Assembly (NCBI GenBank): GCA_964291235.2
Contig: OZ219816.1
Coordinates: forward strand, 160,001-224,000
Length of the DNA stretch: 64,000 nt
Origin: Vicinamibacteria bacterium
GTDB taxonomy: Bacteria; Acidobacteriota; Vicinamibacteria; Marinacidobacterales; Marinacidobacteraceae
Direction: 5' to 3'
Below, piece by piece: positions 40,301 to 55,753 of the stretch (positions are counted from its first letter, which is position 1; each line of letters starts with the position of its first letter). Made by a program: the position numbers and the translations under genes. Below the pieces are notes generated by a model. The model saw only the letters and a program-made list of their open reading frames with translations, ran no database searches and was not told the origin of the DNA.

Positions 40301-40548
40301 CGAAGGCGGAGGCGATCGTCGCGGCCGGACAGATCCGGCTGCGCCCGATCCTGATGACCACCCTGACCACGATCCTCGCGCTGACCCCGATGGCGCTCGG
40401 GCTCGGCGAGGGGGCCGAGATCCGGGGCCCGATGGCGATCACCGTCATCGGCGGCTTGCTGGTTTCGACCCTGCTGACGCTGGTGGTCATCCCGACGGCG
40501 TATTCGGTGTTCGACCGGAAGAGGTTCACGCCGGAGGCGCCATCGTGA
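37387..40548 (+). CDS. RND permease subunit 1 (AcrB/MdtBC-like)
   Basis: RRPVSV, LPEISYP, GMLLDDSIVVLE, GIVVKNAIVLVD, RLRPILMTT; GTG start. Confidence 0.92.
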   Translation: MKSLIAGCIRRPVSVAMFTVAACVFGFVALGRLPVNLLPEISYPTLTVETRMPGAAPIEVETLVTRPIEEAASVVPGLRRVTSRSRAGTSEVTLEFVWDTNMDFAGLDVREKLDSVVLPEDAERPRLLRFDPASDAIFRIGVSGELPLSALREWTEEDLKKDLDAVEGVAAVRIEGGLVREIQVDVDEGRLAAYGITVAEVSAALADNNVNLAGGSVYEDEARYLVRTLNELDTLDRIRAVIVKDAEGRLVRLQDVAEVRSGFQDQEVILRQGGSEGVEVRVFKEGDANTVQVAEGIRARLETLSEAVPGTLSLAVLFDQSQFIEGAISEVVRNAWEGGLLAILVIALFLRDRRATAVVAMAIPVSVIATFFVMQQMGLSLNIMSLGGLALGVGMLLDDSIVVLEAIHRRRHGGEGARDAAVGGTVEVAGPVIASTLTTVAVFLPIVFVEGVAGQLFRDQALTVSISILASLGFSLALIPVLASRGGGAPGGAPGSASTGRPTLFVRALRGVRAGFRAGGRALAWPLKPVFRAFGAAETAMQRAYPATLRAALRHPVLVFGLAISLFAGSLALGRAAIGVELIPALSQGEFHFDVHLPEGSAVTATDTVVGAVGQSALEDPAVLRVTTEAGTAAGGGFTGGSGRAEHQGRIQVAMADRGDKAAEAAVIERIRADLAGQPGIRYEFGRPSFFSFRQPVEVEIYSEDRSLLVPSARRVQAAVAEVPGLADVRSTAEAGSPEIRVRFAADRLASLGLTVDQASEGLRAKLRGEVATRLDEGDRRIDIVVRGSESLRSRTAAVPELIVHAEEARPVPLRALGDAEVSEGPAELRRVGQRPAVVISGNLDGADLEGATEAIGTSIAGLGLAPGVSTRFGGQREEMERSFASLALAIGLAIFLVYFVMASQFESLLHPFLILFTIPLGAIGVVWALLLSGSTLSVIVLIGMVMLAGIVVKNAIVLVDCINRLRREGMAKAEAIVAAGQIRLRPILMTTLTTILALTPMALGLGEGAEIRGPMAITVIGGLLVSTLLTLVVIPTAYSVFDRKRFTPEAPS

Positions 40549-43500
40549 GCCTTCCAAAGCTGGCGGTGAACCGCCCCGTCACCACCGCGATGGTGCTGCT
40601 CAGCCTGCTCGTGCTCGGCGGCATCTCGTTCACCCGGATCCCGCTGGCGTTCCTGCCGGATGTGGATTTCCCGGGCGTCTTCGTGACCGTCCCCTACCCG
40701 AACGCGAGTCCCCGGCAGATCGAGCGCGAGATCGTCCAACCGCTCGAGGAGGCGCTCGCCACCATCCCCGGCGCCCGGCGTATCCACTCGACGGCCACGG
40801 CCGACCGGGCTGACCTCCAGCTCGAGTTCACCTGGGGCGAAACCGTGGACGTGGCGCGGGCGAAGGTGTTCGAGGCGGTGGAAGACGCCCGCCGGGATCT
40901 GCCCGCGGATGTCCGGGAGATCTACGTCAACACCTTCTCGACGACCCAGATCCCGATCGTCGAGGCGCGGATCTCCGCGCCCGGGATGGACCTGTCGGCG
41001 AACTACGACCGCCTCGAACGGCGGATCGCGGACCCGATCCGGCGCGTTCCGGGCGTCGCGCGGGTGGACCTCGACGGCGTGGAGCCGCGCGAGGTGCGGA
41101 TCAACCTGCGCCTCGACCGGCTCGCCGCCCACCGGGTGGACATCGGGGAGATCAGCGAGCGCGTGACCGGCATGAACCGGAATGTCTCGCTCGGACGCAT
41201 CCGGGCGCACGGCGAGGTGACGCCCGTCCGCGGCTTCGGGGCGCTTTCGGCCATCGGCGAGATCGGGAGCCTCCCGCTGAACGATCAGGGACTGCGCGTT
41301 GCGGATGTCGCCGACGTCACCTACCGGGAGCCTCCGATCCCCTACGGACGGCATCTCAACGACGAGGCGGCCATCGGGCTGACGGTCTTCAAGGCGGCGC
41401 AGGCGAACACGGTGGAGGTCGCCACCGCGGTTACCGAGCTGATCGAGACCGAGATTGCCGCCGACCCGGCACTCGCCGGGATCAGCCTCTTCGTCTGGGA
41501 GGACCAGGCGGCCGAGATCACCTCGGGCCTCGCGGGCATCCGCACGGAGGGACTGCTCGGGGCGCTCTTCGCCGTCTTCTTGCTCTTCCTGTTCCTGCGC
41601 CGGGTGGACACGACCTCGATCATCAGCCTGACGATTCCGATGTCCATCATCGCGACCGCGATCGTCCTCTACTTCGCCGGCCGGTCACTCAACGTGCTCT
41701 CCATGATGGGGATGATGCTGGGCATCGGGCTGCTGGTGGACGACGCCATCGTGGTGCTCGAATCCATCGTCCGCGAGCACGGCCGCGGAATTCCGGCGCG
41801 GGCGGCAGCCATCACCGGCGCCCGTGCGGTGTCCGGGGCGGTGATCGCCTCGACGGTCACCACCGCGGTGGTGTTCTTGCCGATGGTGGTGGGGCCCAAG
41901 AACCAGATGTCCATCTGGCTCGGGGAGATCGGCCTCGCCATCTCGCTGACCATCTTCTGTTCACTGTTCATTTCGCTGACCCTGATCCCGCTGGTGAGTT
42001 CGCGGCTGCTCGCGAGGAAACCGTCGGTCGCGCCGCGCTGGACCGAGCGGCTGGGAGACCTGTACCAGGCCGTCCTGCGGTTCACCCTGCGCCGGCGCTG
42101 GGTCACGGCGGGAATCGCGGTCGCCTTCCTCGCTACCGCGATCCTGCCGTTCTTCCTGGGTCTCTCCACCGCGGTGTTCTCCGGGTTCAACCGCAACCGG
42201 GTCTTCCTCGCCTACGAGTTCTCGGATTTCCACTACAAGGAGGATGCGCGCGGTGCGGTGCTGGCCGTCGAGCGCGAGCTCGCCGGACTCCGCGACGAAC
42301 TGGGAATCGAGTCGGTCTACAGCTTCTTCGGCGAGAACGAGGCGCAGACGGTGATCTCGTTCGGGGAGCAGCACATCTCCGACGACGAGGGCAAGGAACT
42401 CCGCGAGCGGATCAAGACGGTTTTGCCGCCCCTTCCCGGGGCGCGGATCGTCTTCGGAGACGAAGATCAGGAAACCGGCGGGGAGAGCATGTTCTTCCGC
42501 GTCCGGTTCTATGGCGAGGATTCGGAGCGCCTCGCCGCCATCGCCCGCGAGGCCGAAGACCGGTTGACGGCGGTCGGGGGCGTCGCGGACATCCGGAGCG
42601 GCGAGGACAACCCGCGGAAGGAAGTGGTGGTCCGGCCGCGGGCCGAGGCGGCCGCGCGGATCGGCGTCACGCCGCGCGACCTCGCCGAGATCTTCGGTTT
42701 CACCCTCGGCGGCCGGCCGCTCCGCCGTTTCCAGACCGAGGACCGGGAGGCCGAGGTGCTCCTCACCGTGTCCCAGCAGGACGTCTCACGGGTGGAGGAT
42801 CTCCGGAACTTCACCCTGACGTCCGATGCCGGAGTCCCGGTCTCCCTCGGCGACCTCGCCGATTTCGAGATCGTCGAACGCAGCCGCGCGATCCGGCGGG
42901 TGGACCGGAAGGCGGTGGCCACGCTGCGCGCCAGCTACGAAGGGGAGACGTGGGAGGACGCCCGTACCGAGATCGAGGAGGAACTCGACGAGATGGCGCT
43001 TCCCGCCGGGTACACCTGGTCCTTCGGGGACCGGATCAACCGGCAGGACACCGACCTCCAGAACATGGCGGTGAACTATCTGCTGGCGCTGCTGCTGATC
43101 TACATCGTGATGGCCGCCCAGTTCGAGTCGCTCATCCATCCGCTCGCGATCCTGATTTCGATCCCCTACGCGCTGTGGGGCGCATCCTGGATGCTGCTCG
43201 TGACGAACAGTCCGTTCAACCTGATGGCCCAAATCGGCATGCTCATCCTGATGGGCATAGTGGTGAAGAACGGGATCGTGCTGATCGACCATGTGAACAA
43301 GCTGCGCCGCGACGGGATGGAGCGCACCCAGGCGCTCCTCGAAGGCGGCCGGGACCGGCTGCGGCCCATCCTGATGACCGCCGGCGCGACGATGCTGGCG
43401 CTGGTGCCGATGGGGATCGGGCGGACCGGGCTCGACGGGCTCTACTACTTCCCGCTCGCCCGGACCGTGATCGGCGGACTCGCCGCTTCGACGGTCCTGA

Positions 43501-43631
43501 CGCTCGTCATCCTGCCGTTCTTCTACACGCTGCTGGACGACCTGGCGATGCGGGCGCGCCGCGTTTGGCGGGCGAGCGGGGAGCCGGCGGTTCCGGCGCC
43601 ACCGGCGACAGAACCAGTCACGGTTCCCTGA
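40545..43631 (+). CDS. RND permease subunit 2 (heteromeric pair)
   Basis: GTGA overlap with the previous stop; NRPVTT, GLLVDDAIVVLE, GIVVKNGIVLID, RLRPILMTA. Confidence 0.92.
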   Translation: MSLPKLAVNRPVTTAMVLLSLLVLGGISFTRIPLAFLPDVDFPGVFVTVPYPNASPRQIEREIVQPLEEALATIPGARRIHSTATADRADLQLEFTWGETVDVARAKVFEAVEDARRDLPADVREIYVNTFSTTQIPIVEARISAPGMDLSANYDRLERRIADPIRRVPGVARVDLDGVEPREVRINLRLDRLAAHRVDIGEISERVTGMNRNVSLGRIRAHGEVTPVRGFGALSAIGEIGSLPLNDQGLRVADVADVTYREPPIPYGRHLNDEAAIGLTVFKAAQANTVEVATAVTELIETEIAADPALAGISLFVWEDQAAEITSGLAGIRTEGLLGALFAVFLLFLFLRRVDTTSIISLTIPMSIIATAIVLYFAGRSLNVLSMMGMMLGIGLLVDDAIVVLESIVREHGRGIPARAAAITGARAVSGAVIASTVTTAVVFLPMVVGPKNQMSIWLGEIGLAISLTIFCSLFISLTLIPLVSSRLLARKPSVAPRWTERLGDLYQAVLRFTLRRRWVTAGIAVAFLATAILPFFLGLSTAVFSGFNRNRVFLAYEFSDFHYKEDARGAVLAVERELAGLRDELGIESVYSFFGENEAQTVISFGEQHISDDEGKELRERIKTVLPPLPGARIVFGDEDQETGGESMFFRVRFYGEDSERLAAIAREAEDRLTAVGGVADIRSGEDNPRKEVVVRPRAEAAARIGVTPRDLAEIFGFTLGGRPLRRFQTEDREAEVLLTVSQQDVSRVEDLRNFTLTSDAGVPVSLGDLADFEIVERSRAIRRVDRKAVATLRASYEGETWEDARTEIEEELDEMALPAGYTWSFGDRINRQDTDLQNMAVNYLLALLLIYIVMAAQFESLIHPLAILISIPYALWGASWMLLVTNSPFNLMAQIGMLILMGIVVKNGIVLIDHVNKLRRDGMERTQALLEGGRDRLRPILMTAGATMLALVPMGIGRTGLDGLYYFPLARTVIGGLAASTVLTLVILPFFYTLLDDLAMRARRVWRASGEPAVPAPPATEPVTVP

Positions 43632-43851: not shown

Positions 43852-44346
43852 ATGCCCCAGTCCGCGCCGCAGCCGCCGAAACCCATTCCCGCACGCGCGG
43901 AGAGCGGCGTCCCGAAATCGACCGATAGCGGCGTCCTCTTCCGTGCCCTGGTGGAAGCCGGAGCGGATCCAGGGCTCGCCTATACTGCTGAAGCAGGAAC
44001 GAAGTCCATGGTTTCCGAAGCGGTAGCCACGCAGGTCCAGCCGATTCTGGTGGAAATGCGCCAGCTCTTCGCCGAGCAGGAGCGGCGCTTCGCCGAGCAG
44101 GATCGGAAGCTGGACGCGCTGGCCGCGAAATATGCCGAGCACGACCGCAAGCTGGATGCGCTGGCCGCGCACGTTGGCGAGCACGACCACAAGCTGGATG
44201 CACTGACCACGGAGGTCCGGCGGACGAACGAGGTCGTGGACGTGAAGCTGGACGGCATCCGGCGGGAGTTGCGGCTGATCTGGGGCGCGCTCGGAATCTC
44301 GCTGACGGTGTGGCTGGTGGTCCTCGGGTACCTGCTCTCGAACTGA
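43852..44346 (+). CDS. Membrane-anchored coiled-coil protein (CCDC90/DUF1640-like architecture), copy 1
   Basis: GGAGGAG RBS; head LFRALVEAGADP; three 14-aa E(H/Q)D(R/H)KLDAL units; C-terminal TM IWGALGISLTVWLVVLGYLL. Confidence 0.78.
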   Translation: MPQSAPQPPKPIPARAESGVPKSTDSGVLFRALVEAGADPGLAYTAEAGTKSMVSEAVATQVQPILVEMRQLFAEQERRFAEQDRKLDALAAKYAEHDRKLDALAAHVGEHDHKLDALTTEVRRTNEVVDVKLDGIRRELRLIWGALGISLTVWLVVLGYLLSN

Positions 44347-44375
44347 TTGCTGCCGCGGCGGAGGCCAGGCCGGTG

Positions 44376-44665
44376 CCGCCAGGGCTGGTGGGGGGTTTCG
44401 CCGAGAGGGGAGCCATCCTGACGGATGGAGTCCGTCCCGCCGCCCGCCTTCGGCGGGCTGTGCCGGCCTGGAGGCCGGCGTTCCCTTGCGGTCGCCCGCG
44501 CTTTCGCGCTGGGTGGGGGTTTGTGCCGACGCGGGCCTACGGCCCGCTGTGCCGGCCCCCACCGGGAGGACTGGCCTGGGGATCGGCCCAGTTCTCTCGG
44601 CGGGGGCTCCGGTGCCGGTGTGGCGCCAAGGCTGGTGAGGTTCCCGCCGAGAGGGGAACCATCCT
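44376..44665. repeat. REP-containing intergenic repeat between the duplicated genes
   Basis: CGCCGAGAGGGGA(G/A)CCATCC twice and GGGCTGTGCCGGCCTGGAGGCCGGCGTTCCC; same family as the 7809 array. Confidence 0.8.
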
Positions 44666-44847
44666 GCATCGATCTCTGCGGCGGAAGTATGAGAAATCCC
44701 GGCTGGCATCGCTCGCCCGCGGTCGGCGTCTTCGCACCGAGTTTTCCACATCGACCACCGCGGGCGGGAAGAAACGGGCCGGAATTTCGTCTATGGGATG
44801 AGTGGGAGACGCCGTGTCTTCCACCGCATCCCCCGGAGGAGTGTCCG

Positions 44848-45447
44848 ATGCCCCAGTCCGCGCCGCAGCCGCCGCAGCCGATCCCCCCACGTGCGGAGGG
44901 CGGCGTCCCGAAAACGACCGATAGCGGCGTCCTCTTCCGTGCCCTGGTGGAAGCCGGAGCGGATCCAGGGCTCGCCTATACTGCTGAAGCAGGAACGAAG
45001 TCCATGGTTTCCGAAGCGGTAGCCACGCAGGTGCAGCCGATTCTGGTGGAAATGCGCCAGCTCTTCGCCGAGCAGGATCGGAAGCTGGACGCGCTGGCCG
45101 CGAAAGTTGCCGAGCACGGCCTCAAGCTGGACGCGCTGGCCGCGAAATATGCCGAGCACGACCGCAAGCTGGACGCGCTGGCCGCGAAATATGCCGAGCA
45201 CGACCGCAAGCTGGACGCGCTGGCCGCGAAATATGCCGAGCACGACCGCAAGCTGGATGCGCTGGCCGCGCAGGTTGGCGAGCACGACCATAAGCTGGAC
45301 GCACTGACCACGGAGGTCCGGCGGACGAACGAGGTCGTGGACGTGAAGCTGGACGGCATCCGGCGGGAGTTGCGGCTGATCTGGGGCGCGCTCGGAATCT
45401 CGCTGACGGTGTGGCTGGTGGTCCTCGGGTACCTGCTTTCGAACTGA
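44848..45447 (+). CDS. Membrane-anchored coiled-coil protein, copy 2 (expanded 42-bp repeat)
   Basis: Near-identical to 43852..44346 but with six KLDAL units; ATG 44848 with GGAGGAG RBS. Confidence 0.78.
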   Translation: MPQSAPQPPQPIPPRAEGGVPKTTDSGVLFRALVEAGADPGLAYTAEAGTKSMVSEAVATQVQPILVEMRQLFAEQDRKLDALAAKVAEHGLKLDALAAKYAEHDRKLDALAAKYAEHDRKLDALAAKYAEHDRKLDALAAQVGEHDHKLDALTTEVRRTNEVVDVKLDGIRRELRLIWGALGISLTVWLVVLGYLLSN

Positions 45448-45477
45448 CTGGTGCCGCCGCGGAGGCGGGGGCCGGTG

Positions 45478-45710
45478 CCGCCAGGGCTGGTGGGGGTTTC
45501 GCCGAGAGGGGAGCCATCCTGACGGGTGGGGGTCCGTCCCGCCGCCCGCCTTCGGCGGGCTGTGCCGATCTGGAGGCCGGCGTTCCCTTGCGGTCGCCCG
45601 CGCTTTCGCGCCGGGTGGGGGTCCGTCCCGCCGCCCGCCTCCGGCGGGCTGTGCCGATCTGGAGATCGGCGTTCCGTTGCGGTCGCCCGCGCTTTCGCGC
45701 TGGGTGGGGG
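45478..45710. repeat. REP-containing tail, two hairpin units
   Basis: GCCGATCTGGAGGCCGGCGTTCCC and GCCGATCTGGAGATCGGCGTTCC, each followed by TGCGGTCGCCCGCGCTTTCGCGC. Confidence 0.8.
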
Positions 45711-45779
45711 GATTGTCCGGCGTTTTCCGGAACAGGGTAGGCTGCGCAACGTATTGATCCGTGGAGACAGAACACGGAA

Positions 45780-46520
45780 ATGAACGGGAGCAGCAACGGA
45801 ACCGCCGCAGTGAACGGCGCTGCCGCCGTCTCCATGCGGGACGTGACCAAGGTGTACCAGATGGGGGAGGTCGAGGTGCACGCGCTCCGTGGCGTGAGCC
45901 TCGACTTCGACGAGGGCGGGTTCACCGTCCTCCTCGGGCCGTCCGGGAGCGGCAAGTCCACGCTCCTCAACATCCTCGGGGGACTCGACGTCCCCACGGC
46001 GGGCCAGGTGGTCTATCGGGGCCAGGACCTCACCCGCGCGGACGAGGGCGAACTGACCCGCTACCGGCGGCGCCGGGTGGGATTCGTCTTCCAGTTCTAC
46101 AACCTGATCCCCTCGCTCAGCGCCCGGGAGAACGTGGAACTCGTGACCGAAATCTCCGACGACCCGCTCCCCGCGCTGGAGGCGCTCGACATCGTCGGCC
46201 TCTCGGACCGGACGGACCACTTCCCCTCGCAGATGTCCGGCGGCGAACAGCAGCGCGTGGCCATCGCGCGCGCCATCGCCAAGCGGCCGGACATCCTCCT
46301 CTGCGACGAACCGACCGGAGCGCTCGACATCAGCACCGGCATCCAGGTGCTCGAGGCCATCGAGCGGGTGAACCGCGAGTACGGCGCCACCACCGCCATC
46401 ATCACCCACAACGCCGCGATCTCGACGATCGCCGACCGGGTCATCTCGCTGGCCGACGGCCGCATTTCGCAGGTGCAGCGGAACGAGACGCGCGCCGCCG
46501 CCTCCACGGTCCAATGGTGA
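45780..46520 (+). CDS. ABC transporter ATP-binding protein (MacB/LolD type)
   Basis: [43 protein letters not shown]. Confidence 0.94.
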
Positions 46521-46530
46521 GGCGCCCCGC

Positions 46531-48897
46531 ATGATCGCCGCGCTCGACCGCAAGCTGCTCCGCGACCTCTGGCGGGTCCGCTCCATGGGGTTCACCATCG
46601 CCGTGGTCGTCGCGTCGGGGATCGCCCTGCTCATCGCGTCGCTCATCTGCTTCGACTCGCTGGAGTCGACTCGCGACCGCTACTACGCCAGGAACGAGTT
46701 CGGCGACGTCTTCGCGAACGCCAAGCGGGTCCCGAGGTGGGTCGCCGGGAGTCTCGACGAGCTGCCCGGGGTGGAGAAGGTGGACACGCGAGTCGTGGCC
46801 GGAGTCACGCTCGACGTGCCGGGCAGCACCGAACCGGTCAACGGCCGCCTCATCTCGCTGCCGGACAGCGGCCGCCCGGTCCTCAACGGCGTCACGCTGC
46901 GCAGCGGCCGCTTCCCCGACCCGGGACGTGCGGAGGAGGCGCTCGTCAACGAACGCTTCGCCCAGGGGCACGGGCTCGCACTGGGCGACCAGGTCTTCGC
47001 GGTGATCAACGGCCGGCGCCAGCGGCTCGAGATCGTGGGGACGGTGCTTTCGCCGGAGTACGTCTATGCGATCGCCGGCGGCGACCTGCTGCCGGACCCG
47101 ACGCGGTTCGGGGTCTTCTGGATGGCGCGCCGGCACCTCGCGACCGCCTTCGACATGGAGGGAGGGTTCAACGACATCTCGCTCGCGCTCGCCGACGGCG
47201 CGCCCGCCGAGCCCGCGATCGTCGAGCTGGACCGCCTGCTCGAGCCGTACGGCGGCCTCGGGGCCATTCCCCGCGCCCAGCAGATCTCCCACTGGTACCT
47301 CCAGAACGAGTTGACGGGGCTCCGCGGCATGGCGCTGCTGATGCCGATGATCTTCCTGGGGATCGCGGCCTTCCTCCTGAACGTCGTGCTCCGGCGGATG
47401 GTCGCGGTCCAGCGGGAACAGATCGCGGTTCTCAAGGCGGTCGGCTACTCGAACCTGCGCCTCGGGCTCCACTACACCCAGTGGGCGGGAGCGGTGTCCG
47501 TCCTGGGGGGCGCGCTCGGGATCGCGCTCGGGGCGCTGATGAGCGCCGGGATGCTCAACCTCTACATGGAGTACTTCCGCTTCCCGGACCTGATCACCCG
47601 TTGGAGCTCGACGCACATCCTCGGCGCGCTGTTCGCCTGCGGGGCGGCGTCCGTGCTCGGCGCCGCGGCCGCGGTCAAGAGCGTGGTGCGTTTGCCGCCC
47701 GCGGAAGCGATGCGCCCCGCCCTGCCGGACAGCTTCCGCGTTTCGCTGCTGGAACGGCTGGGGCTCCGGCGGTGGCTGACCCAGCCCCTGCGCATGGTCC
47801 TCCGCAACCTGTCCCGCCGCCCGCTCCGCGCCGCGATGTCCGTGGTCGGCATCGCCTTCTCGGCCGCCCTCATGGTGATGGCGAGCGCCGCCATGGACTC
47901 CTTCGAGGAGCTCATGCAGCTCCAGTTCAACGTGGTCCAGCGCCAGGACGTAACGGTGACCTTCTTCGAACCGGAAGGGCGCGCCGCCTACTACGAGCTG
48001 GCGTCGGTGCCGGGCGTCCTCGAGGTCGAACCGCTGAACGGGGTGTCCGCCCGCCTCCGGAACGGAAACCGGAACCGCCAGGTCGGGATCCAGGCGCTCC
48101 AGCCCGACGCCCGGCTCCAGCGGGTGGTGGGCGCCGACTACCAGCCGGTGCAGCTCGACCGGGCGGGGCTGATCCTCTCGCGGAAGCTGGCTGACGTGCT
48201 TGGCGTCGAGCCGGGGGACGCCCTGCGGGTGGAGGCGCTCCAGGGCACGCGGCCCGAGCAGGACATGGTGGTGAGCGCCACCGTGGACGATCTGATGGGC
48301 GTTTCCGCCTATATGGAGCCGGATGCGCTCCGGCGCTTCCTCAGCGACACGGCGACCCTGAGCGGAGCGGCGCTCGCGATCGACCCGGCGGCGCGCGAGT
48401 CGGTGTACGCCTCGCTCAAGGGGATGCCGGTGGTGGCGGGCGTCGCGCTCCAGCACGCCATGATGGAGAACTTCGAGACCTTCGTGGCCGAGAACGTGAA
48501 CAACCAGTTGGCGATCAACCTGCTCTTCGCGATGGCGATCGCGTTCGGGGTGATCTACAACACGGCGCGCATCTCGCTCTCGGAGCGGAGCCGCGAGCTC
48601 GCCAGCATGCGGGTCATGGGCTTCACCCGTGCGGAGATCGGCGTCGTGCTCTTCGGCGAACTGGCCATCCTGACGGCGGCGGCGATCCCGGTCGGGCTGG
48701 CGCTCGGCTATTCCATGCTGGCGGGTATGGTGGCCGCCTACGAGACCGAGCTGTTCCGGATGCCGCTGGTCGCCGAACCGGGCACCTTCGCGTGGGCCTC
48801 CGCCGCGGTCGCCGTCGCCATGGGGCTCTCGGCGCTCGTGGTCCGCCGTAAATTGAACCGGCTCGATCTCGTGGAAGTACTGAAGACGCGCGAATAA
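46531..48897 (+). CDS. FtsX/MacB-type ABC permease (duplicated architecture)
   Basis: [56 protein letters not shown]. Confidence 0.9.
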
Positions 48898-48910
48898 TCA
48901 GGGGAGCAAC

Positions 48911-50134
48911 ATGAAAAAACGACGGCGTCTCGTCATCTGGGGCATCGCCCTGGTGGGAGTCATCGCGCTCATCACGCTCGCCTCGCGCCCCCGCCCGATC
49001 CCCGTGGACGTAGCCGCGGTGGTGCGCGGCACGCTCTCGGTGACGCTCGACGAAGAAGGCGAGACGCGGGTCCGGGACCGGTTCGAGATCTCCGCGCCGG
49101 TGTCCGGGCGGGTCCTCCGCATCGAACTCGAGCCCGGCGATCCGGTGCTCGCCGCGGAGAGCGTGCTCGCCACGTTCCTGCCCGCGTCGCCGGTGCCGCT
49201 CGACCCGCGCCAGCGGGCGGAAGCCGCCGCCGCGGTCGAGGCCGCGGAAGCCGCGGTGGGGCGGGCCGAGGCGCTCCACGAGCAGGCGGCGCAGGAGCGC
49301 GCGTTCGCCGAGTCCACCCTGAACCGGCTGCGCCGACTTCAGCAGGAGGGCGTCAGTTCCGAAGAACAGCTTGAAATGGCCCAGCTCGAACTCGACACCC
49401 GCCAGGAGGCGCTCGAGGCCGCGGAGTTCGCGGTCCGGGACGCACGCGGCAACCTGGCGGTCGCGCGGGCGCGCTTGCAGCGCTTCCGTTTCCGCCCCGG
49501 CGGCGGTGCAACCGGCAATCCCGAGGCGATCCAGATCTTTTCCCCGGTGGACGGCGTGGTGCTGCGACGGCTCCGGGAGAGCGAAGCGGTGGTGCCCCCC
49601 GGCGAGCCGCTGCTCGAGGTCGGCGACCCGCGGGAACTCGAAGTCGTCACCGACTATTTGTCGAACGACGCCGTGCGGATGCGCGCCGGGCAGTCCGCGC
49701 TCATCGACCGCTGGGGCGGCGACCGGCCCCTCCGCGGCCGGGTGCTCCGGGTCGAGCCGTCGGGATTCACCAAGATCTCGGCCCTCGGAGTCGAAGAACA
49801 GCGGGTCAACGTCGTGATGGAGCTCGAGGAGCCCTACGAGGCGCGGCCCAGCCTGGGAGACGCCTACCGGGTCGAGACCCGGGTGGTCGTCTGGGAGCAG
49901 GAGGAGCAGGTGAAGGTGCCGGTAGGCGCGCTCTTCCGCCGGGGAACCGACTGGGCCGTCTTCGTCGTCGAGGACGGGACAGCCGGCGAGCGGACCGTGG
50001 AGATCGGTGAACGCAACCGGCAGGAGGCGCAGGTCCTCGGCGGCCTGGAAGTCGGCGACCAGGTCGTCGTGTATCCCGGCGACAGCGTGGCCGACGGGGT
50101 CCCGGTCGCGGCGGCGAGCGCGGCGTCCGGATGA
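48911..50134 (+). CDS. Efflux periplasmic adaptor (HlyD/MacA-like)
   Basis: N-terminal TM; ISAPVSGRV...GDPV, SPVDGVVL, FTKISALGVEEQRVNV. Confidence 0.9.
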   Translation: MKKRRRLVIWGIALVGVIALITLASRPRPIPVDVAAVVRGTLSVTLDEEGETRVRDRFEISAPVSGRVLRIELEPGDPVLAAESVLATFLPASPVPLDPRQRAEAAAAVEAAEAAVGRAEALHEQAAQERAFAESTLNRLRRLQQEGVSSEEQLEMAQLELDTRQEALEAAEFAVRDARGNLAVARARLQRFRFRPGGGATGNPEAIQIFSPVDGVVLRRLRESEAVVPPGEPLLEVGDPRELEVVTDYLSNDAVRMRAGQSALIDRWGGDRPLRGRVLRVEPSGFTKISALGVEEQRVNVVMELEEPYEARPSLGDAYRVETRVVVWEQEEQVKVPVGALFRRGTDWAVFVVEDGTAGERTVEIGERNRQEAQVLGGLEVGDQVVVYPGDSVADGVPVAAASAASG

Positions 50135-51414
50135 CGGAGGGTTCGGGGACCGCCGACCTTCGGGACGCGTTCTGGCGGATTCGCCGGCAGACCACGGAGC
50201 TCGCGGCGCCCCTCGCCATCGAGGACTACGTGGCGCAGTCCATGCCGGACGCGCGTCCGGCGAAGTGGCACCTGGGCCACACCTCGTGGTTCTTCGAGAC
50301 GTTCGTGCTGACGGCGCCCGGCGTTTCCGGCCGCGGCGGCAGCTATTCCCCGGCGCGCCCCGAGTACCAGGCGATCTTCGGCGTGTCCGGCGCCGGCGTC
50401 TCCCAGCCGGGACCGGTCAGCCGCGAGCGCGGCGTCCTGTCCCGGCCGACGGTGGCCGAGGTCTTCGACTACCGGCGGCGGGTGGACGAGGGGATCGAGG
50501 AACTCCTCGCGGGAGAGGTGTCCAGCGAGGCGCGGGAGCTGGTGGTGCTCGGGCTGCACCACGAACAGCAGCACCAGGAGCGGCTGCTCGCCGACCTGAA
50601 GCACCTGTTCTCGATGAACCCGCTCCATCCGGCTTACGGGGAGGCGACGCCGCGCGCGCCCGGAACGGCTCCGCCTCCGCTGCGGTTCCTGTCGTTCGCT
50701 GGGGGAACGCTGCCCTTCGGCCACCAGGGGACGGGTTTCGCGTTCGACAATGAAAGACCCCGCCACGAGCGGCTGATCGCGCCGTTCCAGCTCGGTTCGC
50801 GGTTGATCACGAACGGCGAATACCTCGAATTCATCGAGGAGGGCGGCTACCGGGAGTCCTCGCTCTGGCTCTCGGACGGGTGGGACGCCCGGGTGGCGGG
50901 CGGCTGGGAAGCGCCGCTCCACTGGGTCCGGGAGGGCGACGGCTTCAATGAGTTCACACTCGGGGGGCTGGCGGCGCTCGCGTCCGAAAGCCCGGTCCAC
51001 CACTTGAGCTACTTCGAGGCGGACGCCTTCGCACGCTGGCGGGAGGCCCGCCTCCCGACCGAGTTCGAGTGGGAAACGGCGGCGGCGGACCGGCCGCTCA
51101 CCGGGACGTTCCTGGAAGAAGGCGGCCTCCGGCCCCTGCCGGCGCCCAAGGCCGCCCGCGGCGGATCGTCCGGCCCGGCGCAACTCTTCGGGGACGCCTG
51201 GGAGTGGACCGCGAGCCCCTATCTCCCCTACCCGGGGTTCCGCCCGTCCGGCGTCTTTGGCCAATCGAGCGGCAGATCCATGTCGGGCCGGATGGTGCTC
51301 CGCGGGGGATCGTGCTTCACGCCGGCCTCCCACCTCCGGGCCACCTACCGCCACGTCCTGCGACCCGACGCCCGCTGGCAGGCGACCGGGATCCGGATCG
51401 CTCGCGACCGGTAG
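50131..51414 (+). CDS. egtB: EgtB-family (DinB + FGE-like) non-heme iron enzyme with a divergent active site
   Basis: KWHLGHTSWFFETF, GLHHEQQHQE (iron His triad), FAFDNERPRH, RLPTEFEWE, GDAWEWTAS, VLRGGS; ATGA overlap with the MFP gene. Confidence 0.8.
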   Translation: MTEGSGTADLRDAFWRIRRQTTELAAPLAIEDYVAQSMPDARPAKWHLGHTSWFFETFVLTAPGVSGRGGSYSPARPEYQAIFGVSGAGVSQPGPVSRERGVLSRPTVAEVFDYRRRVDEGIEELLAGEVSSEARELVVLGLHHEQQHQERLLADLKHLFSMNPLHPAYGEATPRAPGTAPPPLRFLSFAGGTLPFGHQGTGFAFDNERPRHERLIAPFQLGSRLITNGEYLEFIEEGGYRESSLWLSDGWDARVAGGWEAPLHWVREGDGFNEFTLGGLAALASESPVHHLSYFEADAFARWREARLPTEFEWETAAADRPLTGTFLEEGGLRPLPAPKAARGGSSGPAQLFGDAWEWTASPYLPYPGFRPSGVFGQSSGRSMSGRMVLRGGSCFTPASHLRATYRHVLRPDARWQATGIRIARDR

Positions 51415-51430
51415 CCTCGGCGGCCTTCGC

Positions 51431-52369
51431 GTGCCTGATTTCGCTCTCGCGCGCACCGCCGCCCGCGCTGAGATCCGGGCCGGACTGCTCGGCGATCCAC
51501 CCCGGATTTCGCCCAAGTTCTTCTACGACCGGGCGGGATCGGAACTCTTCGAGCAGATCACCCGGACGCCCGAGTACTACCTGACCTCGACCGAGGTCGG
51601 GATCCTGGAGACGCGGCGGGCGGAGATCGCAGCCGGGATCGGCCCCCGCGCGGTGCTCGCCGAGATCGCGAGCGGGAGCGCCCGGAAGGCGCGCATCGTG
51701 CTCGGCGCCCTCGACGCGCCGGCCGCCTACGTCCCGGTGGACATCTCGGAAGCGACCCTCGCCGGCGAAGCTGCGGCGCTCCGGCGCGACTTCCCGGGCC
51801 TCCGGGTGCTCCCGGTGGCGGTGGATTTCTCGCGGGACTTCGCCTTCCCGGAGTTCCCCTTCGACCACGACCGGATCGCGATCTTCTACGCGGGCTCGTC
51901 GCTCGGGAACTTCGAGCCGGAGGAGGCGGCGGCCTTTCTCGCGCGGCTCGGGCGCGCCGCCGACCCGGGGTCGCGGCTCCTGCTCGGCGCCGACCGCAAG
52001 AAGGACAAGGCGACCCTCGACCGCACCTACAACGATCCGGGGGGCCTGAACGCCGCCTTCAACCGCAACATCCTGAACAACGTGAACCGGTTGGCGGACG
52101 GCGACTTCGACCCGGAGAAGTGGATCCCGCACCAGTTCTACGTCGAGCGGCGCGGTCGGATCGAGCTATGGCTCGAGAGCGCCGAGGACCAGACCGTCCG
52201 GGTGGCCGGCGAGGTGTTTCGGTTTGCCGCCGGCGACCGGATCCACACCGAGAACTCCTACAAGTACGACGTGGACGAGGTTCTCGCGCTCGCGGCCCCG
52301 GCGTGGACCCCGCTCCACGTCTGGAGCGACCCGGCCGAACGCTTCAGCGTCTTCCTGTTCGGCTGCTGA
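51431..52369 (+). CDS. egtD: EgtD-family (Methyltransf_33) amino-acid N-alpha-methyltransferase
   Basis: PKFFYD..GSELFEQIT..PEYY, YVPVDIS, GSSLGNF, AAFNRN, HTENSYKY; GTG start. Confidence 0.82.
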   Translation: MPDFALARTAARAEIRAGLLGDPPRISPKFFYDRAGSELFEQITRTPEYYLTSTEVGILETRRAEIAAGIGPRAVLAEIASGSARKARIVLGALDAPAAYVPVDISEATLAGEAAALRRDFPGLRVLPVAVDFSRDFAFPEFPFDHDRIAIFYAGSSLGNFEPEEAAAFLARLGRAADPGSRLLLGADRKKDKATLDRTYNDPGGLNAAFNRNILNNVNRLADGDFDPEKWIPHQFYVERRGRIELWLESAEDQTVRVAGEVFRFAAGDRIHTENSYKYDVDEVLALAAPAWTPLHVWSDPAERFSVFLFGC

Positions 52370-52590
52370 CCCAGACCGGAAACCGTCGGCCTCTAGTGAC
52401 GTCCGCGCTGGAGGCAATTCAAGATGGCACTATCTTTGCTGCACAAAGCCAATCCATCCGCTTCCACGCCAAAGACGTCACTATCGGCGATGCCGAACCG
52501 CGACCCTGCGCGGGTCATCGCGCCCGGTGGATGGGCCCAACGCACTCGCAAGCCCGACTAGAATCGACGACTGGATCGCGGGCAAGACCG

Positions 52591-53061
52591 GTGCGCAGGG
52601 ACAGCGAACGTCAGCACCTGAAGCTTCTCGTCGCCAAGATAACCGTTCTGGTTTTGTCCTCCGGCTGTGTCTACCAATCGCAGACAGTCCGGCTGCCGAA
52701 CACTGCCGCTCCAACGAAGCCGATCCGATCGATTTCTGTTGCCGCTGGCGGCGTCCTCGCCGAGGCCATCGGCTTCGAGCTGGCTGCCAACTACGAATTC
52801 GAGCTGGTGGCCGATGGTGCCGACGCGGTAATCGAGGCAACGTGGGAAGCTGGATATGACGGCAAGCCGGAGACGGTTTTCGTACAGCTGATCGACGCCC
52901 AATCCGCAGCCGTGGTTGGCGCCGTGAGGTGGCACAACTCCGGCGGTGGCGAGAAAGGCTCCGCGTTGGACCGACGCACCCGGAAGGACGTCACGGCGGC
53001 CGCGGCCGAAATCGCGTACGAATTGATTTACGAGCTACCTCAGTTCTGGCAGAACCGTTGA
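52591..53061 (+). CDS. Hypothetical lipoprotein
   Basis: Hydrophobic stretch ending LSSGC; lower-GC segment; start codon uncertain. Confidence 0.5.
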   Translation: MRRDSERQHLKLLVAKITVLVLSSGCVYQSQTVRLPNTAAPTKPIRSISVAAGGVLAEAIGFELAANYEFELVADGADAVIEATWEAGYDGKPETVFVQLIDAQSAAVVGAVRWHNSGGGEKGSALDRRTRKDVTAAAAEIAYELIYELPQFWQNR

Positions 53062-53252
53062 GGCCGCAGCTCCCGAGGGTTCATCGGGTCGGCGCCGGCG
53101 CGAAGCATTCTTCCGTTACCGACGCAATGCCGACCAGCACTGGGCGTACCCCGCTGGCGCGCGCCTCAAATCGGTTCCGGAGCGTGCATTCACGACCATG
53201 GTGGCCGCGACGCCGGTCTTGAGACCGGCCGTCCTCCCCGATAATCCCACCC

Positions 53253-55184
53253 ATGATCCGACTCGCCGTCCCGATCCTCCTGGCCGCTTTCGCGGCCGCA
53301 GCCTCCGCCCAACCCGCGGAAGAACGCGTCGAGTGGCCCTCCTGGGGCGGCGATCCGGGCTCGATGCACTACTCCCCGTTGACCAAAATCAACCGGGACA
53401 ACGTCTCCGGCCTGAAACTCGCCTGGGAGTGGGACACCGGCGAGGGACCGCTCAGCGGGCCCCGGCTGCCGGTGCCCGACAACCCGGTGCGCCCCGGCAG
53501 CTTCGAGAACACCCCGCTGGTATACGACGGGGTGATGTACGTGAGCACCTCCTACAACAAGGTGGTGACCCTGAACCCCGACACCGGGGAGGTCCTGTGG
53601 ACCTACGACCCCCGGATCACCGAGTGGGGCCAGGTGCCGAACGGGACCGGCTTCGTGCACCGGGGGGTCGCGCTCTGGGAGGACGCCGACGGGAAGCGGC
53701 GCGTCTTCCTGAACAGCCGCTGGCGGCTCATCTCGATCGACACCGTCACCGGCGAGCCCGACCCGTCGTTCGGGGACGGCGGCGAGATCGATCTCACCGC
53801 CCAGCTGGTCTGGCCCATCAACCGCCTCCACTACACCCAGACCTCGCCCCCGGTCGTCTTCGAGGACCTGGTGATCCTGGGGAACGGGGTCTGGGACCGC
53901 TTCGTTTACGAGCGCGACCCGCCGGGAAACGTGCAGGCGTTCAGCACGAAGACCGGCGAACTGGTCTGGTCCTTCAACCTGATCCCCCAGCCCGGGGAGT
54001 TCGGGAACGACACCTGGGAGGACGGCGCCTGGGACCGGGTGGGCCACACGAACGTCTGGGCGCCGATGTCGCTCGACGCCGAGCGGGGGCTCATCTACCT
54101 GCCGGTGGGAACGCCGAGCAACGACTACTACGGCGGCGGCCGCCTCGGGGACAACCTCTTCGCGGAGGCCATCGTCTGCCTTGACGCCCGCACCGGGGAG
54201 CGGGTCTGGCACTTCCAGACCGTGAAGCACGGCCTCTGGGACTACGACCTGCCGGCCGCGCCGACGCTGCTCACCATCAACGTGGACGGCCGGGAGATCG
54301 ACGCGGTGGCGGCCCCCGCGAAGACCGGCTTCGTGTACGTCTTCGACCGGGTCACCGGCGAACCGGTCTGGCCCATCGAGGACCGTGCGGTTCCGGCGAG
54401 CGACGTTCCCGGCGAGCGCGCGGCCGAGACGCAGCCCTTCCCGACGAGACCGGCGCCCTTCGCCAAGCAGAGCTTCACGGAGGACGAGGTCATCGCCTTC
54501 ACCCCCGAGCTGCGCGAGGAGGCGCTCGCCATCGTGCGGAAGTACCGCATGGGAGGCCTCTACACCCCGCCGTCGCTCGAAGGAACGATCGCCAATCCGG
54601 GAATCCTGGGCGGCGCGAACTGGGGCGGCGCGGCGGCCGACCCCGAAACCGGGGTGATCTACATCAAGGCCAACGAGTTCCCCGCCCTGCTCGCCATCAC
54701 CGAGGCCAACCCGGACCAGACCGAGGGCCGCTACTGGCTCGACCGCGAGCGCCGGTCGCTGAACCTGCCGAACGGGCTGCCGATCAACAAGCCGCCCTAC
54801 GGCACCCTCACCGCAATCGACCTGAACACCGGGGACCACCTCTTCCAGGTGCCGGCCGGCAACAACTCGCTGGTCCGGAATCACCGGGCGCTCGAAGGCG
54901 TGGACCTCGGCGACGAGCGCCTCGGCATCGTGGGGGCGCCGGGGCCGATGGTCACCGGCGGCGGGCTCGTCTTCTTCACCGGAGGCGCCGACCATCTCTT
55001 CGCCATCGACAAGGCCACCGGCGCGGAACTGTGGGCGCACCCGCTGGGAGCGAGTTCCTACGCGAACCCGATGACCTACGAATCACCCGAGGGGGTGCAG
55101 TTCGTGGTGGTCGCGGTGGGGCGCGGCACCGGCAACAAACTGGTCGCGTTCTCGCTCGGGGAGCCGGACTCCGCCGGGAACTGA
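53253..55184 (+). CDS. PQQ-dependent dehydrogenase (glucose/quinate/shikimate family, periplasmic)
   Basis: Signal peptide; YSPLTKINRDNV..L..AW, ENTPL, HRGVA, WHFQTVKHGLWDYDLP, GGANWGG, PPYG, ANPMTY; Trp-docking repeats. Confidence 0.9.
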   Translation: MIRLAVPILLAAFAAAASAQPAEERVEWPSWGGDPGSMHYSPLTKINRDNVSGLKLAWEWDTGEGPLSGPRLPVPDNPVRPGSFENTPLVYDGVMYVSTSYNKVVTLNPDTGEVLWTYDPRITEWGQVPNGTGFVHRGVALWEDADGKRRVFLNSRWRLISIDTVTGEPDPSFGDGGEIDLTAQLVWPINRLHYTQTSPPVVFEDLVILGNGVWDRFVYERDPPGNVQAFSTKTGELVWSFNLIPQPGEFGNDTWEDGAWDRVGHTNVWAPMSLDAERGLIYLPVGTPSNDYYGGGRLGDNLFAEAIVCLDARTGERVWHFQTVKHGLWDYDLPAAPTLLTINVDGREIDAVAAPAKTGFVYVFDRVTGEPVWPIEDRAVPASDVPGERAAETQPFPTRPAPFAKQSFTEDEVIAFTPELREEALAIVRKYRMGGLYTPPSLEGTIANPGILGGANWGGAAADPETGVIYIKANEFPALLAITEANPDQTEGRYWLDRERRSLNLPNGLPINKPPYGTLTAIDLNTGDHLFQVPAGNNSLVRNHRALEGVDLGDERLGIVGAPGPMVTGGGLVFFTGGADHLFAIDKATGAELWAHPLGASSYANPMTYESPEGVQFVVVAVGRGTGNKLVAFSLGEPDSAGN

Positions 55185-55228
55185 GCGGACGGTATTCTTC
55201 CGGGTCACCCCACCGAGGAGAGTTCACC

Positions 55229-55753
55229 ATGCCCCTTCCCCCGCTCTACGACCCCGACGCCGTTCGTCCCATGTGGGAGGAACTGGCCGACTGCCGCGTG
55301 ACACCGCTTCATCAGCCGGAAGAGGTGGACCAAATGCTGGAAAGGCCGGGCACCGCCCTCGTGGTGGTCAACTCGGTCTGCGGGTGCGCCGCCGGCTCGG
55401 CGCGTCCGGGAGTCACCATGGCGCTCCAGCACGGCAAGATCCCCGACCACCTGGGGACGGTCTTCGCCGGAGTGGACCGCGACGCCACCGACCGCGCCCG
55501 CGGCTACATGACCGATGTCCCGCCGTCCTCCCCCGCCATCGCGCTGTTCAAGGACGGCCAGTTGATCCACATGCTCGAGCGGCGGCACATCGAACGGATG
55601 GCGCCGGACATGGTCGCGGCGAACCTGGCAGCGGCGTTCGAAACGCACTGCGAGGCCGAGGGTCCCTCGGTCCCGCGCGACGTCTGGGAGCGCTCGGCGC
55701 GTGAACGGATGTGCGGCTCGAACGTCCCGATCTTCAACCCGACCTTCCGGTAG
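55229..55753 (+). CDS. BrxA/BrxB-family bacilliredoxin (YphP/YqiW, CGC motif)
   Basis: VVVNSVCGCAAGSARP, TVFAGVD..AT...R, PPSSPAIALFKDG, ERRHIE; GAGGAG RBS. Confidence 0.88.
   Translation: MPLPPLYDPDAVRPMWEELADCRVTPLHQPEEVDQMLERPGTALVVVNSVCGCAAGSARPGVTMALQHGKIPDHLGTVFAGVDRDATDRARGYMTDVPPSSPAIALFKDGQLIHMLERRHIERMAPDMVAANLAAAFETHCEAEGPSVPRDVWERSARERMCGSNVPIFNPTFR

Follow-up and report, generated by a model that had tools for sequence, protein, structure and literature searches.

In the type II ergothioneine sulfoxide synthase (EgtB) of Chloracidobacterium thermophilum (Cth), Tyr93 and Tyr94 are essential (PMC10903977, PMC8943887), and residues 91-111 form the lid of the sulfur-donor subpocket (PMC10696552). 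When Tyr is replaced by Phe in EgtB, sulfoxide synthase activity is lost and a CDO-like activity remains (PMC10903977, PMC8943887), the thiol being oxidised to the sulfinic acid, though the Y405F variant of OvoA from M. thermotolerans is described as keeping about 30% sulfoxide-synthase partitioning (PMC8943887). The composite active-site motif of EgtB-II has been given as xSHHYYRRHQHxYNFFx, in which Y-N-F selects hercynine; exchanging three positions suffices to change the preference of OvsA between histidine and hercynine, and the histidine-accepting OvoA and OvsA carry Ala in place of a bulky aromatic of the hercynine motif (PMC11030361). Both pieces of background on which the original prediction for the present locus had drawn, that the tyrosine pair of the SYY loop is catalytic in Cth EgtB and that the NFF region lines the trimethylhistidine pocket, agree with these sources. 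Among the characterised NHISS quoted in the cited papers, EgtB-I, EgtB-II, SenA, OvsA, OvoA and AshA all keep the catalytic tyrosine. No account of a natural EgtB without it was found in the literature collection searched.

Within the 64,000-nucleotide stretch of DNA analysed here (the window), the open reading frame at 50131..51414 encodes a 427-residue protein, P0001, that is a Tyr-less derivative of type II EgtB; this and all other features below lie on the plus strand. P0001 contains the Pfam DinB_2 and FGE-sulfatase domains, and as a whole protein it scored 456.7 bits against the EgtB equivalog TIGR03440 (cut-off 360), compared with 312.4 bits against the SenA model NF041186 (under its cut-off of 420) and 103.2 bits against the OvoA/EgtB-IV model TIGR04344 (under its cut-off of 400). 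Its best solved relative is Cth EgtB (8qf6, 6qki, 6o6l; 47% identity, E about 1e-119). The AF2 model, with a mean pLDDT of 84.5, matched 6qkj/6o6l in Foldseek with TM scores of 0.88-0.92, and in phylogenetic analysis P0001 branched inside the type II radiation, beside the canonical same-family orthologues P0039 and P0042 (63-69% identity). It represents a variant, so far uncharacterised, within a known class of enzymes. A further, canonical EgtB was also sought in the genome and not found: P0001 is the sole TIGR03440 match over the cut-off, the runner-up (316 bits) is identified as SenA by the SenA model, and three more hits are weak and FGE-like.

The features shared with type II EgtB (6O6L/6QKI/8QF6) are the DinB-like and FGE-like fold, the histidine triad, H47, Q147, R100 and an egtD gene downstream. 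Aligned to Cth EgtB, both scaffold and histidine motifs that the original prediction had called intact were indeed so. The first, WHLGH (W46-H50, 50266..50280), contains H47 and the first iron ligand, H50, which aligns with Cth His62 (8qf6 chain index); the second, HEQQH (H144-H148, 50560..50574), supplies the second and third ligands and Q147. The facial triad H50/H144/H148 aligns with the Fe(II) ligands of Cth EgtB and shows no variation in alignment A1, so P0001 keeps the predicted 3-His iron site. Across 39 representatives of the clade that shares its variant motifs, H144, Q147 and H148 are conserved in 39/39, as in all canonical sequences, and H50 in 38/39, the exception being one N-terminally broken cluster representative. 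H47, Q147 and R100 show little or no variation in the same set.

Around this site, the motifs that define type II EgtB are replaced. The former NSYY catalytic-tyrosine motif and lid loop (residues 84-105, 50380..50445) now read GVSG followed by a loop of variable length, with S86 and G87 standing at the positions of Tyr93 and Tyr94. In the 39 variant representatives, position 86 is Ser throughout and position 87 varies, whereas YY is found in 78/78 canonical sequences. No compensating tyrosine has been gained clade-wide in the variant-clade alignment; a tyrosine at position 205 is common in the clade (85%), but P0001 itself has Phe there. Of the thiol-binding R-x-x-R pair of the lid, R100 is invariant, and the other arginine (99% in canonical sequences) aligns with S97 in a loop with indels, where R98 of P0001 sits one residue out of register with it. 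Unlike the Cth lid (91-111), the P0001 loop is degenerate, and model residues 87-101 have pLDDT below 50. Lid-block pLDDT values were 58 and 44 in P0001 against 75 and 70 in a canonical control, P0042, modelled by AF2 with the same 44 sequences, a difference that, in an alignment of mostly canonical sequences, lends mild support to an altered lid.

The substrate side is changed as extensively. Residues 378-387 (51262..51291) are QSSGRSMSGR in place of EYNGKFMxxQ (E>Q, Y>S, N>S, F>S and Q>R, each 87-100% fixed in the variant clade), and the hercynine Y-N-F motif loses its opening Y here. Residues 408-411 (51352..51363) are HVLR in place of NFFP (N>H 97%, F>V 95%, F>L 100%, P>R 100%), and WQF has become WQA at A418 (51382..51384; Ala in 92% of variant representatives, Phe in 95% of canonical sequences). 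By alignment, the hercynine Y...N-F-F positions (13-16 of the composite motif) would correspond to S379, H408, V409 and L410, so that Y-N-F-F reads S-H-V-L, with F383 and F418 lost as well. New basic residues set P0001 further apart from type II EgtB: R151 (HQEL>HQER, 50581..50583) is Arg in 39/39 variant representatives and Leu in 78/78 canonical sequences, and R42 (DASP>DARP, 50254..50256) is Arg in 82% of the former and Ser in all 78 of the latter, in addition to R387, R411 and H408. From their places in the motifs, R151, R387, R411 and H408 are predicted to face the iron site. The replacements FNSYY>FGVSG (F83 at nucleotide 50377), HQEL>HQER, EYNGKFM>QSSGRSM, YRNFF>YRHVL and WQF>WQA had all been proposed beforehand, and each was seen against Cth EgtB. 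The proposed DASP>DARP change held in part: the arginine is present in P0001, but Cth itself reads DVSP, DASP being the majority form of the 78 canonical relatives, and as a clade-wide change it is weakened by a frequency of only 82%, with one subclade keeping GASP.

To quantify this pattern, the 162 positions with 90% or higher conservation among the 78 canonical type II sequences were taken; at 27 of them the variant clade has another majority residue. With the published composite motif string mapped onto residues by alignment-based inference, 8/14 active-site positions had changed, compared with 19/148 other conserved positions (Fisher odds ratio 9, p 3e-4); as mapped, change is concentrated at active-site positions beyond chance. 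Likewise, at 17 positions the two groups are each fixed, to 85% or more, for different residues, most of these positions lying within known active-site motifs. At 14 of the 27 changed positions a new residue has become fixed (entropy below 0.5); in former substrate motifs these new residues include four arginines and a histidine. The two sides of the pocket differ in this respect, and the predicted remodelling of the pocket within a conserved fold gave a mixed picture: the former hercynine side is re-fixed with small, polar or cationic residues (S379, S380, S383, H408, V409, L410, A418, R151, R387, R411 and usually R42), while the former Tyr94 position, the equivalent of Arg103 and the lid loop have been released, with high entropy and indels.

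The substituted motifs were found in 16/16 genomes of the genus, and among the 121 nearest protein clusters 40 carry FGVS, 78 carry F/LNSY and 3 carry other motifs. A strain-specific degenerate allele is thereby ruled out, close relatives within the genus having retained neither FNSYY nor RNFF, and the clade with shared variant motifs that the original prediction had suggested looking for exists. The P0001 gene is under purifying selection (dN/dS 0.28 over 120 pairs). Over 78 pairs its dN/dS was 0.287, compared with 0.224 for the adjacent egtD and 0.119 for the adjacent HlyD gene; at 0.29, more than twice the values of the HlyD and RND neighbours, constraint is relaxed. With motifs shared genus-wide, a dN/dS close to that of egtD and near-invariant iron histidines, the view that the changes are not random decay is borne out.

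The gene stands in a co-directional block that begins with an ABC-transporter ATPase (45780..46520; best matches to LolD/DevA/MacB-type families, all under the equivalog cut-offs). Ten nucleotides on is a 788-residue FtsX/LolE-like permease (46531..48897; weak LolC/E and FtsX matches), which is syntenic in the genus of the source genome (g1) and in the sister genus g5 (73-93% identity). It is followed by a periplasmic adaptor of the HlyD/membrane-fusion type (48911..50134; TIGR01730, 103.6 bits, cut-off 94.9), which adjoins the P0001 gene in 16/16 g1 loci and also in g5, and whose stop overlaps the P0001 start codon as ATGA. Downstream, after 16 nt, lies egtD, encoding histidine N-alpha-methyltransferase (51431..52369, GTG start inferred; TIGR03438, 329.1 bits, cut-off 290.9; E 2e-57 to the solved mycobacterial EgtD). 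It is present in 15/16 genomes of the genus and neighbours the P0001 gene in 14/16 loci. The block contains no ATP-grasp, lyase or further methyltransferase gene, egtD being the sole methyltransferase, and a bacilliredoxin gene belongs to the same syntenic block. A scan of 44500-53400 was uninformative: it gave no promoter-like site and 5 terminator-like ones (3.8 expected).

The locus is syntenic across the bacterial family, which also includes a genus with canonical EgtB (g7, the source of P0042). Among 11 genomes of the sister genera g2-g6, 8 have an EgtB-like gene, EgtD was found in none, and SenA gave no match over its cut-off. Because the orthologues persist in genera without egtD and senA, the EgtB-like gene appears independent of hercynine. 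Their pockets each differ (FGAGAAN, FAAGSG, FDPG), the iron triad is kept in g2, g4 and g5, and in a g4 pair the EgtB-like gene had a dN/dS of 0.285 compared with 0.121 for the neighbouring RND gene. The g6 orthologue lacks H47, H50 and H148 (WRLGR, HEADQ) and the whole loop, still in an open frame; having lost two of the three iron ligands, it implies that the protein can survive without catalysis in this family. Equally, since ligands have drifted where catalysis is evidently gone, their retention in g1 argues for selection on the metal site. Within the family, egtD was found only alongside SenA or canonical EgtB, and the source genome encodes SenA (475.2 bits), SenB (399 bits) and a SelD-like protein (249.5 bits). 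Most likely, therefore, egtD in this genus feeds SenA. P0001 shares superfamily and fold with this coexisting SenA, to which it is ~29-32% identical, but it has no catalytic Tyr, shows R-H-H where the SenA motif (xNEH--HRHxHYYN(F/Y)(F/Y)R) has N-E-H, and lacks Y-Y-N-F.

The nearest functional parallels are engineered. Like the thiol dioxygenases MthEgtB Y377F and CthEgtB Y93F/Y94F (PMC8943887), P0001 has kept the iron site and is missing the catalytic tyrosine; those are single or double point mutants with hercynine pocket and lid intact, whereas P0001 is natural, genus-wide and rebuilt in the rest of its pocket. By our own mapping its composite motif, xRHHSG(S)RHQHFSHVL, fits none of the six NHISS classes named in PMC11030361 and would fall among the 'other' NHISS, 4,580/39,678 sequences, of which OvsA is the only characterised member given there (Kayrouz et al. 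2024, PMC11030361).

We tentatively favour the reading that P0001 is a vertically inherited orthologue of type II EgtB repurposed away from hercynyl-cysteine sulfoxide, and hence from ergothioneine synthesis, into another iron/O2 enzyme that probably oxidises a thiol, while giving this somewhat less than an even chance. Such an enzyme would no longer make hercynyl-cysteine sulfoxide and would be kept for a different iron-dependent job. It would still bind Fe(II) and O2 together with one iron-ligating substrate, most simply a thiol, and, given the open lid and the several new arginines, that substrate may be larger and more anionic than cysteine. With the proton-donating tyrosine gone, the thiol would be converted to a sulfinate, as Tyr-to-Phe EgtB mutants do with cysteine, with no coupling to hercynine; egtD would have been kept in the genus for the hercynine that SenA needs for selenoneine, and not for P0001. 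Several observations pull against this reading: the released lid, Tyr94 and Arg103 positions could mean that thiol binding is impaired too, the egtD neighbour, kept in the genus at a 16-nt gap, would equally fit a working ergothioneine operon, and the relaxed dN/dS, the ligand loss in g6, the score over the EgtB equivalog cut-off and the residual activity of the OvoA Tyr-to-Phe variant (PMC8943887) have to be set beside it. The same relaxed constraint (0.29 versus 0.12 in the neighbours), the released tyrosine and lid loop with their indels, the divergent pockets of the sister genera and the g6 orthologue would all suit a protein that has lost catalysis altogether and serves a structural, regulatory or ligand-binding role, its histidines needed only for metal-dependent folding or binding, and a family of non-enzymatic FGE-fold immunity proteins has been reported (bioRxiv 10.1101/2021.05.21.445229). 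We consider such a pseudoenzyme unlikely, though deserving of attention, given that the iron histidines, H47, Q147 and R100 are near-invariant in the 39 g1-type representatives, that the triad also survives in g2, g4 and g5, that ligands drifted in g6 but not in g1, and that 14 of the 27 changed positions were re-fixed, four arginines and a histidine among them.

Two further possibilities would retain bond formation. P0001 might be a new NHISS forming a C-S or C-Se bond between another acceptor, for example unmethylated histidine or another imidazole, and a different, larger donor such as bacillithiol or a selenosugar; the resulting novel thio- or seleno-imidazole might leave the cell through the co-transcribed ABC pump. 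The Val where OvoA and OvsA put Ala for the aromatic of the hercynine motif (PMC11030361), the open lid and new arginines, and AshA, in which a new NHISS active-site architecture gave new products, all fit this idea; the genome encodes BshA (474 bits) and BshC (352.5 bits), each scoring above its cut-off, in addition to the bacilliredoxin of the syntenic block, and ABC-transporter ATPases, including the LolD type, rank with the more frequent neighbours of NHISS genes (13.6%; Table 1, PMC13674229). It is nonetheless improbable in our estimate: every characterised NHISS in the cited papers keeps a catalytic tyrosine and P0001 has none available, the block offers no ATP-grasp or lyase gene and no methyltransferase gene beyond egtD, and the ABC pump is absent from the syntenic locus in g2 and g4. 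That P0001 is still an ergothioneine sulfoxide synthase, coupling hercynine and thiol through an unconventional site (for instance His408 or a water network as the acid and other contacts to the betaine), seems to us slightly more doubtful again. In its favour are the 456.7 bits against a cut-off of 360 as the only EgtB-family match over cut-off in the genome, egtD directly downstream and nearly genus-wide, the retained Q147, H47 and R100, and the partial activity of M. thermotolerans OvoA Y405F (PMC8943887). Yet Tyr-to-Phe exchange abolishes this activity in Cth EgtB (PMC8943887) and P0001 has Ser and Gly (or a variable residue) at both positions, small or polar residues have taken over the four Y-N-F-F positions as well as F383 and F418, where three positions suffice to switch OvsA (PMC11030361), orthologues are under equal selection in genomes lacking egtD, and the retention of egtD is explained by SenA.

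A more far-reaching reading can be sketched as a long shot. P0001 would be a former sulfoxide synthase that now works as another kind of iron oxygenase, with an opened lid and an arginine-lined pocket, acting on the organism's own large anionic thiol by dioxygenation or by coupling to a non-betaine acceptor, the product possibly passing to the co-transcribed tripartite ABC exporter. Bacillithiol is the candidate thiol because BshA, BshC and a bacilliredoxin are encoded. If so, the family would preserve a stepwise series from canonical EgtB (g7) through a repurposed iron enzyme (g1, g2, g4, g5) to an iron-free remnant (g6).

P0001 passes the equivalog cut-off and members of its cluster are annotated as 'ergothioneine biosynthesis protein EgtB' despite missing residues that experiments have found to be required. 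If the favoured reading is right, the genus would make selenoneine and not, by this route, ergothioneine. For enzymologists, P0001 would offer a natural Tyr-less NHISS maintained by selection with a rebuilt pocket, and the comparative series within one family, with canonical and iron-free orthologues at the same locus, could show how the scaffold changes its reaction. More widely, among representatives at 50% identity, 118 of the 149 nearest cover the landmark columns, and 22 of these 118 are without the YY pair, 15 of the 22 keeping all three histidines; on the favoured reading, ergothioneine capacity read from egtB/egtD matches would be overcounted here and in about one fifth of related representatives. 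The tyrosine pair may have been lost once or several times in the family: a free quick tree built without active-site columns splits the Tyr-less lineages, a tree uniting them is 15 lnL units better and is not rejected (AU p 0.81, active-site columns dropped), and with those columns included their grouping has an SH-aLRT of 81.

The remodelled EgtB homologue proved to be a real finding: the protein represents a selected, so far uncharacterised form of a familiar type of enzyme, and equivalog annotation mis-calls it. Its open reading frame (window 50131-51414, + strand) is intact and encodes 427 aa, with an ATG start that shares ATGA with the TGA stop of the upstream gene. The protein contains DinB_2 and FGE-sulfatase domains and scores 456.7 bits against the NCBIfam EgtB equivalog model (cut-off 360), falling under the cut-offs of the SenA (312.4 bits, cut-off 420) and OvoA (103.2 bits, cut-off 400) models; a profile search of its own genome gave one TIGR03440 match above cut-off. 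The closest solved structures are three entries for type II EgtB (EgtB-II) of Chloracidobacterium thermophilum (Cth; E ~1e-119). Superposition on Cth EgtB, as suggested with the original prediction, placed the AlphaFold2 model (mean pLDDT 84.5, 44-sequence alignment) on 6QKJ/6O6L with TM 0.88-0.92 and 45-47% identity.

Alignment to Cth EgtB reproduced the predicted motif changes exactly: FNSYY is replaced by FGVSG, HQEL by HQER, EYNGKFM by QSSGRSM, YRNFF by YRHVL and WQF by WQA, with WHLGH and HEQQH unaltered. DASP, which had been taken as the canonical form, is the majority among canonical (FNSYY-type) relatives, but Cth EgtB itself has DVSP. By 8QF6 chain count, H50 is equivalent to His62 and S86/G87 to Tyr93/Tyr94, described as an essential acid-base pair in CthEgtB (PMC10903977), in agreement with the catalytic role that the original prediction cited for the SYY-loop tyrosines. 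In EgtB_Mthr and EgtB_Cth, Tyr-to-Phe substitution is reported to abolish sulfoxide synthesis and leave almost exclusively cysteine-dioxygenase-like activity; one OvoA, by contrast, retains a 3:7 ratio (PMC8943887). The catalytic Tyr is still used by AshA, a new architecture of the NHISS superfamily (PMC13674229). In SenA, the Asn of the hercynine motif Y-N-F hydrogen-bonds the trimethylammonium group (PMC11237966); the lid over the sulfur-donor subpocket corresponds to Cth residues 91-111 (PMC10696552). As judged from the alignment, the residues tied by experiment to sulfoxide synthesis and hercynine selection are lost and the metal site is retained. No description of a natural Tyr-less EgtB turned up in the literature searched, although the motif may be among those given by Kayrouz et al. 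in Supplementary Table 4.

When 39 representatives of the variant, FGVS-type clade were set against 78 canonical ones, each group proved ≥85% fixed, for a different residue, at 17 positions (49, 84-86, 151, 226, 305, 378-380, 383, 387, 408-410, 418 and 423). Kayrouz et al. describe the NHISS active site as 17 positions, with the EgtB-II composite motif xSHHYYRRHQHxYNFFx (PMC11030361); by our own mapping of this motif onto the protein, 8 of 14 defined composite positions are changed, against 19 of the remaining 148 canonical-conserved ones (p 3e-4, odds ratio 9). The variant clade keeps H47, R100, Q147 and the three iron histidines. The changed positions form two classes: re-fixed, with entropy ~0 (49, 84-86, 151, 378, 383, 387, 410) or nearly so (380, 408, 409, 418, 423), and released (87, formerly Tyr94 and now D/A/G/E/T; 91; 97, formerly Arg; and the intervening loop). 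Within the 87-97 region, loop length differs between clade members, and residues 87-101 have pLDDT <50, compared to 70-75 over the matching region in a control model of P0042, a canonical family orthologue, built from the same sequences. Residues gained in the clade are R151, R387 and R411 (100%), H408 (97%) and R42 (82%).

A clade with these motifs, which the original prediction proposed to look for, exists. Among the best 120 clusters of a 5.8-billion-protein search plus the query, FGVS occurs in 40/121, together with HQER, FGQSSG.SM, YRHVL and RWQA/HA (70-96% identity to the query), F/LNSY in 78 with HQEL, EYNGKFM and YRNFF, and other variants (FHSC, FGAG, FEAG) in 3. The nearest canonical clusters, P0039 and P0042, are 63-69% identical to the protein. 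All 16 genomes of the window's genus, g1, carry the variant (own genome counted; 76-81% identity), and their sole other whole-protein-length matches are SenA (~31-35% identity). These two counts rule out a private defect of one strain. The only taxon label met for the clade was 'Acidobacteria bacterium' (P0016). At the 50%-identity level, 118 of the 149 nearest cluster representatives span the landmark columns; YY is present in 96 and absent in 22, of which 15 keep all three histidines and several have H-x-L for N-F-F. Tyr-less EgtB-II-like proteins are therefore a recurrent, uncharacterised phenomenon. By our motif mapping, the protein belongs to the 'Other' NHISS class of Kayrouz et al., 4,580 of 39,678 members with functions 'yet to be uncovered' (PMC11030361).

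Five co-directional genes, separated by at most 16 nt or overlapping, include this gene in fourth place; their order is ABC ATPase, ABC permease, HlyD-type adaptor, EgtB homologue and egtD (TIGR03438, 329.1 bits vs 290.9). This EgtD aligns over its full length to the solved mycobacterial EgtD (E 2e-57) and retains motifs that we take to be histidine-binding. The HlyD-type gene adjoins the variant in 16/16 g1 loci and egtD in 14/16, the contig of G015 stopping before egtD. In another g1 genome (G008, L031 7866-9971), egtD lies ~2.1 kb away, compared to 16 nt in the window, with something inserted. G013 (g1, 10% contamination) has two near-identical variant-egtD pairs (G013:C1:12973-16372 and G013:C4:407241-411544), each followed by a short stop-containing EgtB N-terminal fragment and a partial egtD; in another genome, a similar stop-containing fragment (G001:C17:218159-218413) lies ~2 kb downstream of the locus. 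The own genome also encodes SenA (G000:C2:1077117-1078364, L002 1489-2787, minus strand; 475.2 bits vs 420), its divergent neighbour SenB (L002 2808-3761, +; 399.1 vs 300) and, on another contig, a SelD-like selenophosphate synthetase (G000:C1:1307759-1308700, L113; 249.5 vs 125), and thus appears equipped for selenoneine synthesis.

The EgtB-like genes of the bacterial family are orthologues, since the locus is syntenic: RND pump genes, ABC pump, EgtB-like gene, egtD, PQQ dehydrogenase, bacilliredoxin, tmk and holB, where the ABC pump is confined to g1 and g5 and egtD to g1. The EgtBs of the family group together in a single clade (18 rows, support 100), and the data would fit a one-time loss of the tyrosine pair. 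Among the sister genera, g7 has a canonical FNSYY protein and egtD, and the orthologues of g5 (FGAGAAN/CRNFL), g2 (FAAGSG/SRRFL) and g4 (FDPG/TRHHL) keep the iron histidines. The g6 orthologue (G027, L030 8824-10017) has an open frame with the whole tyrosine/lid loop gone and, with WRLGR and HEADQ, two of three iron ligands lost; the other g6 genomes, G024 and G026, gave only N-terminally shortened matches. EgtD was detected in 15/16 g1 and 1/1 g7 genomes and in 0/11 g2-g6 genomes (completeness 87-95%), and SenA above cut-off in 15/16 g1 and 0/12 other family genomes: egtD follows SenA or canonical EgtB, not the remodelled protein. Since 8/11 g2-g6 genomes nevertheless have the EgtB-like gene, and the g4 pair has a dN/dS of 0.285 (0.121 for the adjoining RND gene), the remodelled orthologues are independent of egtD and stay under selection in genomes that lack a hercynine source. 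The overall tallies also cover G036, which is flagged as unpublished; none of the statements made here depends on it.

Across g1, the proposed dN/dS analysis gave 0.28 (Nei-Gojobori, 16 genomes, 120 pairs), indicating genus-wide purifying selection. For the 13 genomes that yielded the full set of three genes (78 pairs), values were 0.287 for the variant, 0.224 for egtD and 0.119 for the HlyD-type neighbour; selective constraint on the variant is therefore similar to that on egtD and weaker than that on the transporter gene. Relaxed dN/dS, the released tyrosine/lid loop and the iron-free g6 orthologue would fit the main rival reading, that the protein is a pseudoenzyme, which we consider unlikely given the iron histidines kept in g1, g2, g4 and g5. 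A new C-S/C-Se coupling reaction and continued ergothioneine synthesis via an unconventional site are both improbable; no clade-wide gained tyrosine was found in the 39 variant representatives compared with canonical ones.

We favor a selected variant that would still be an Fe(II)/O2 enzyme, whose default chemistry without the tyrosine may be to oxidise a thiol bound to the iron. A larger, anionic substrate is suggested by the gain of arginines and the opening of the lid. The sole reason to name bacillithiol as a candidate is that the genome carries the pathway for it: BshA (G000:C2:735106-736221, L118; 474.1 bits vs 273.7) and BshC (G000:C2:1205102-1206598, L117; 352.5 vs 265.8). With a BrxA/BrxB-family bacilliredoxin in the syntenic block (window 55031-55753, +; 178.3 bits), bacillithiol is probably the organism's low-molecular-weight thiol.

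Directly upstream of the ABC pump, two big RND-type transporter ORFs (window 37312-43631, +; 1078 and 1154 aa) overlap at their ends and lie inside the conserved synteny, with ~78-89% identity across the family. Two neighbouring paralogous ORFs of 164 and 340 aa (window 43852-45447) end in a common hydrophobic tail and share a 42-bp (14-residue) tandem repeat, at 44092-44205 (2.7 copies) and 45067-45306 (5.7 copies), whose unit, AEHDRKLDALAAKY, is coiled-coil-like. They are followed by an 89-bp direct repeat of 2.1 copies at window 45523-45710.
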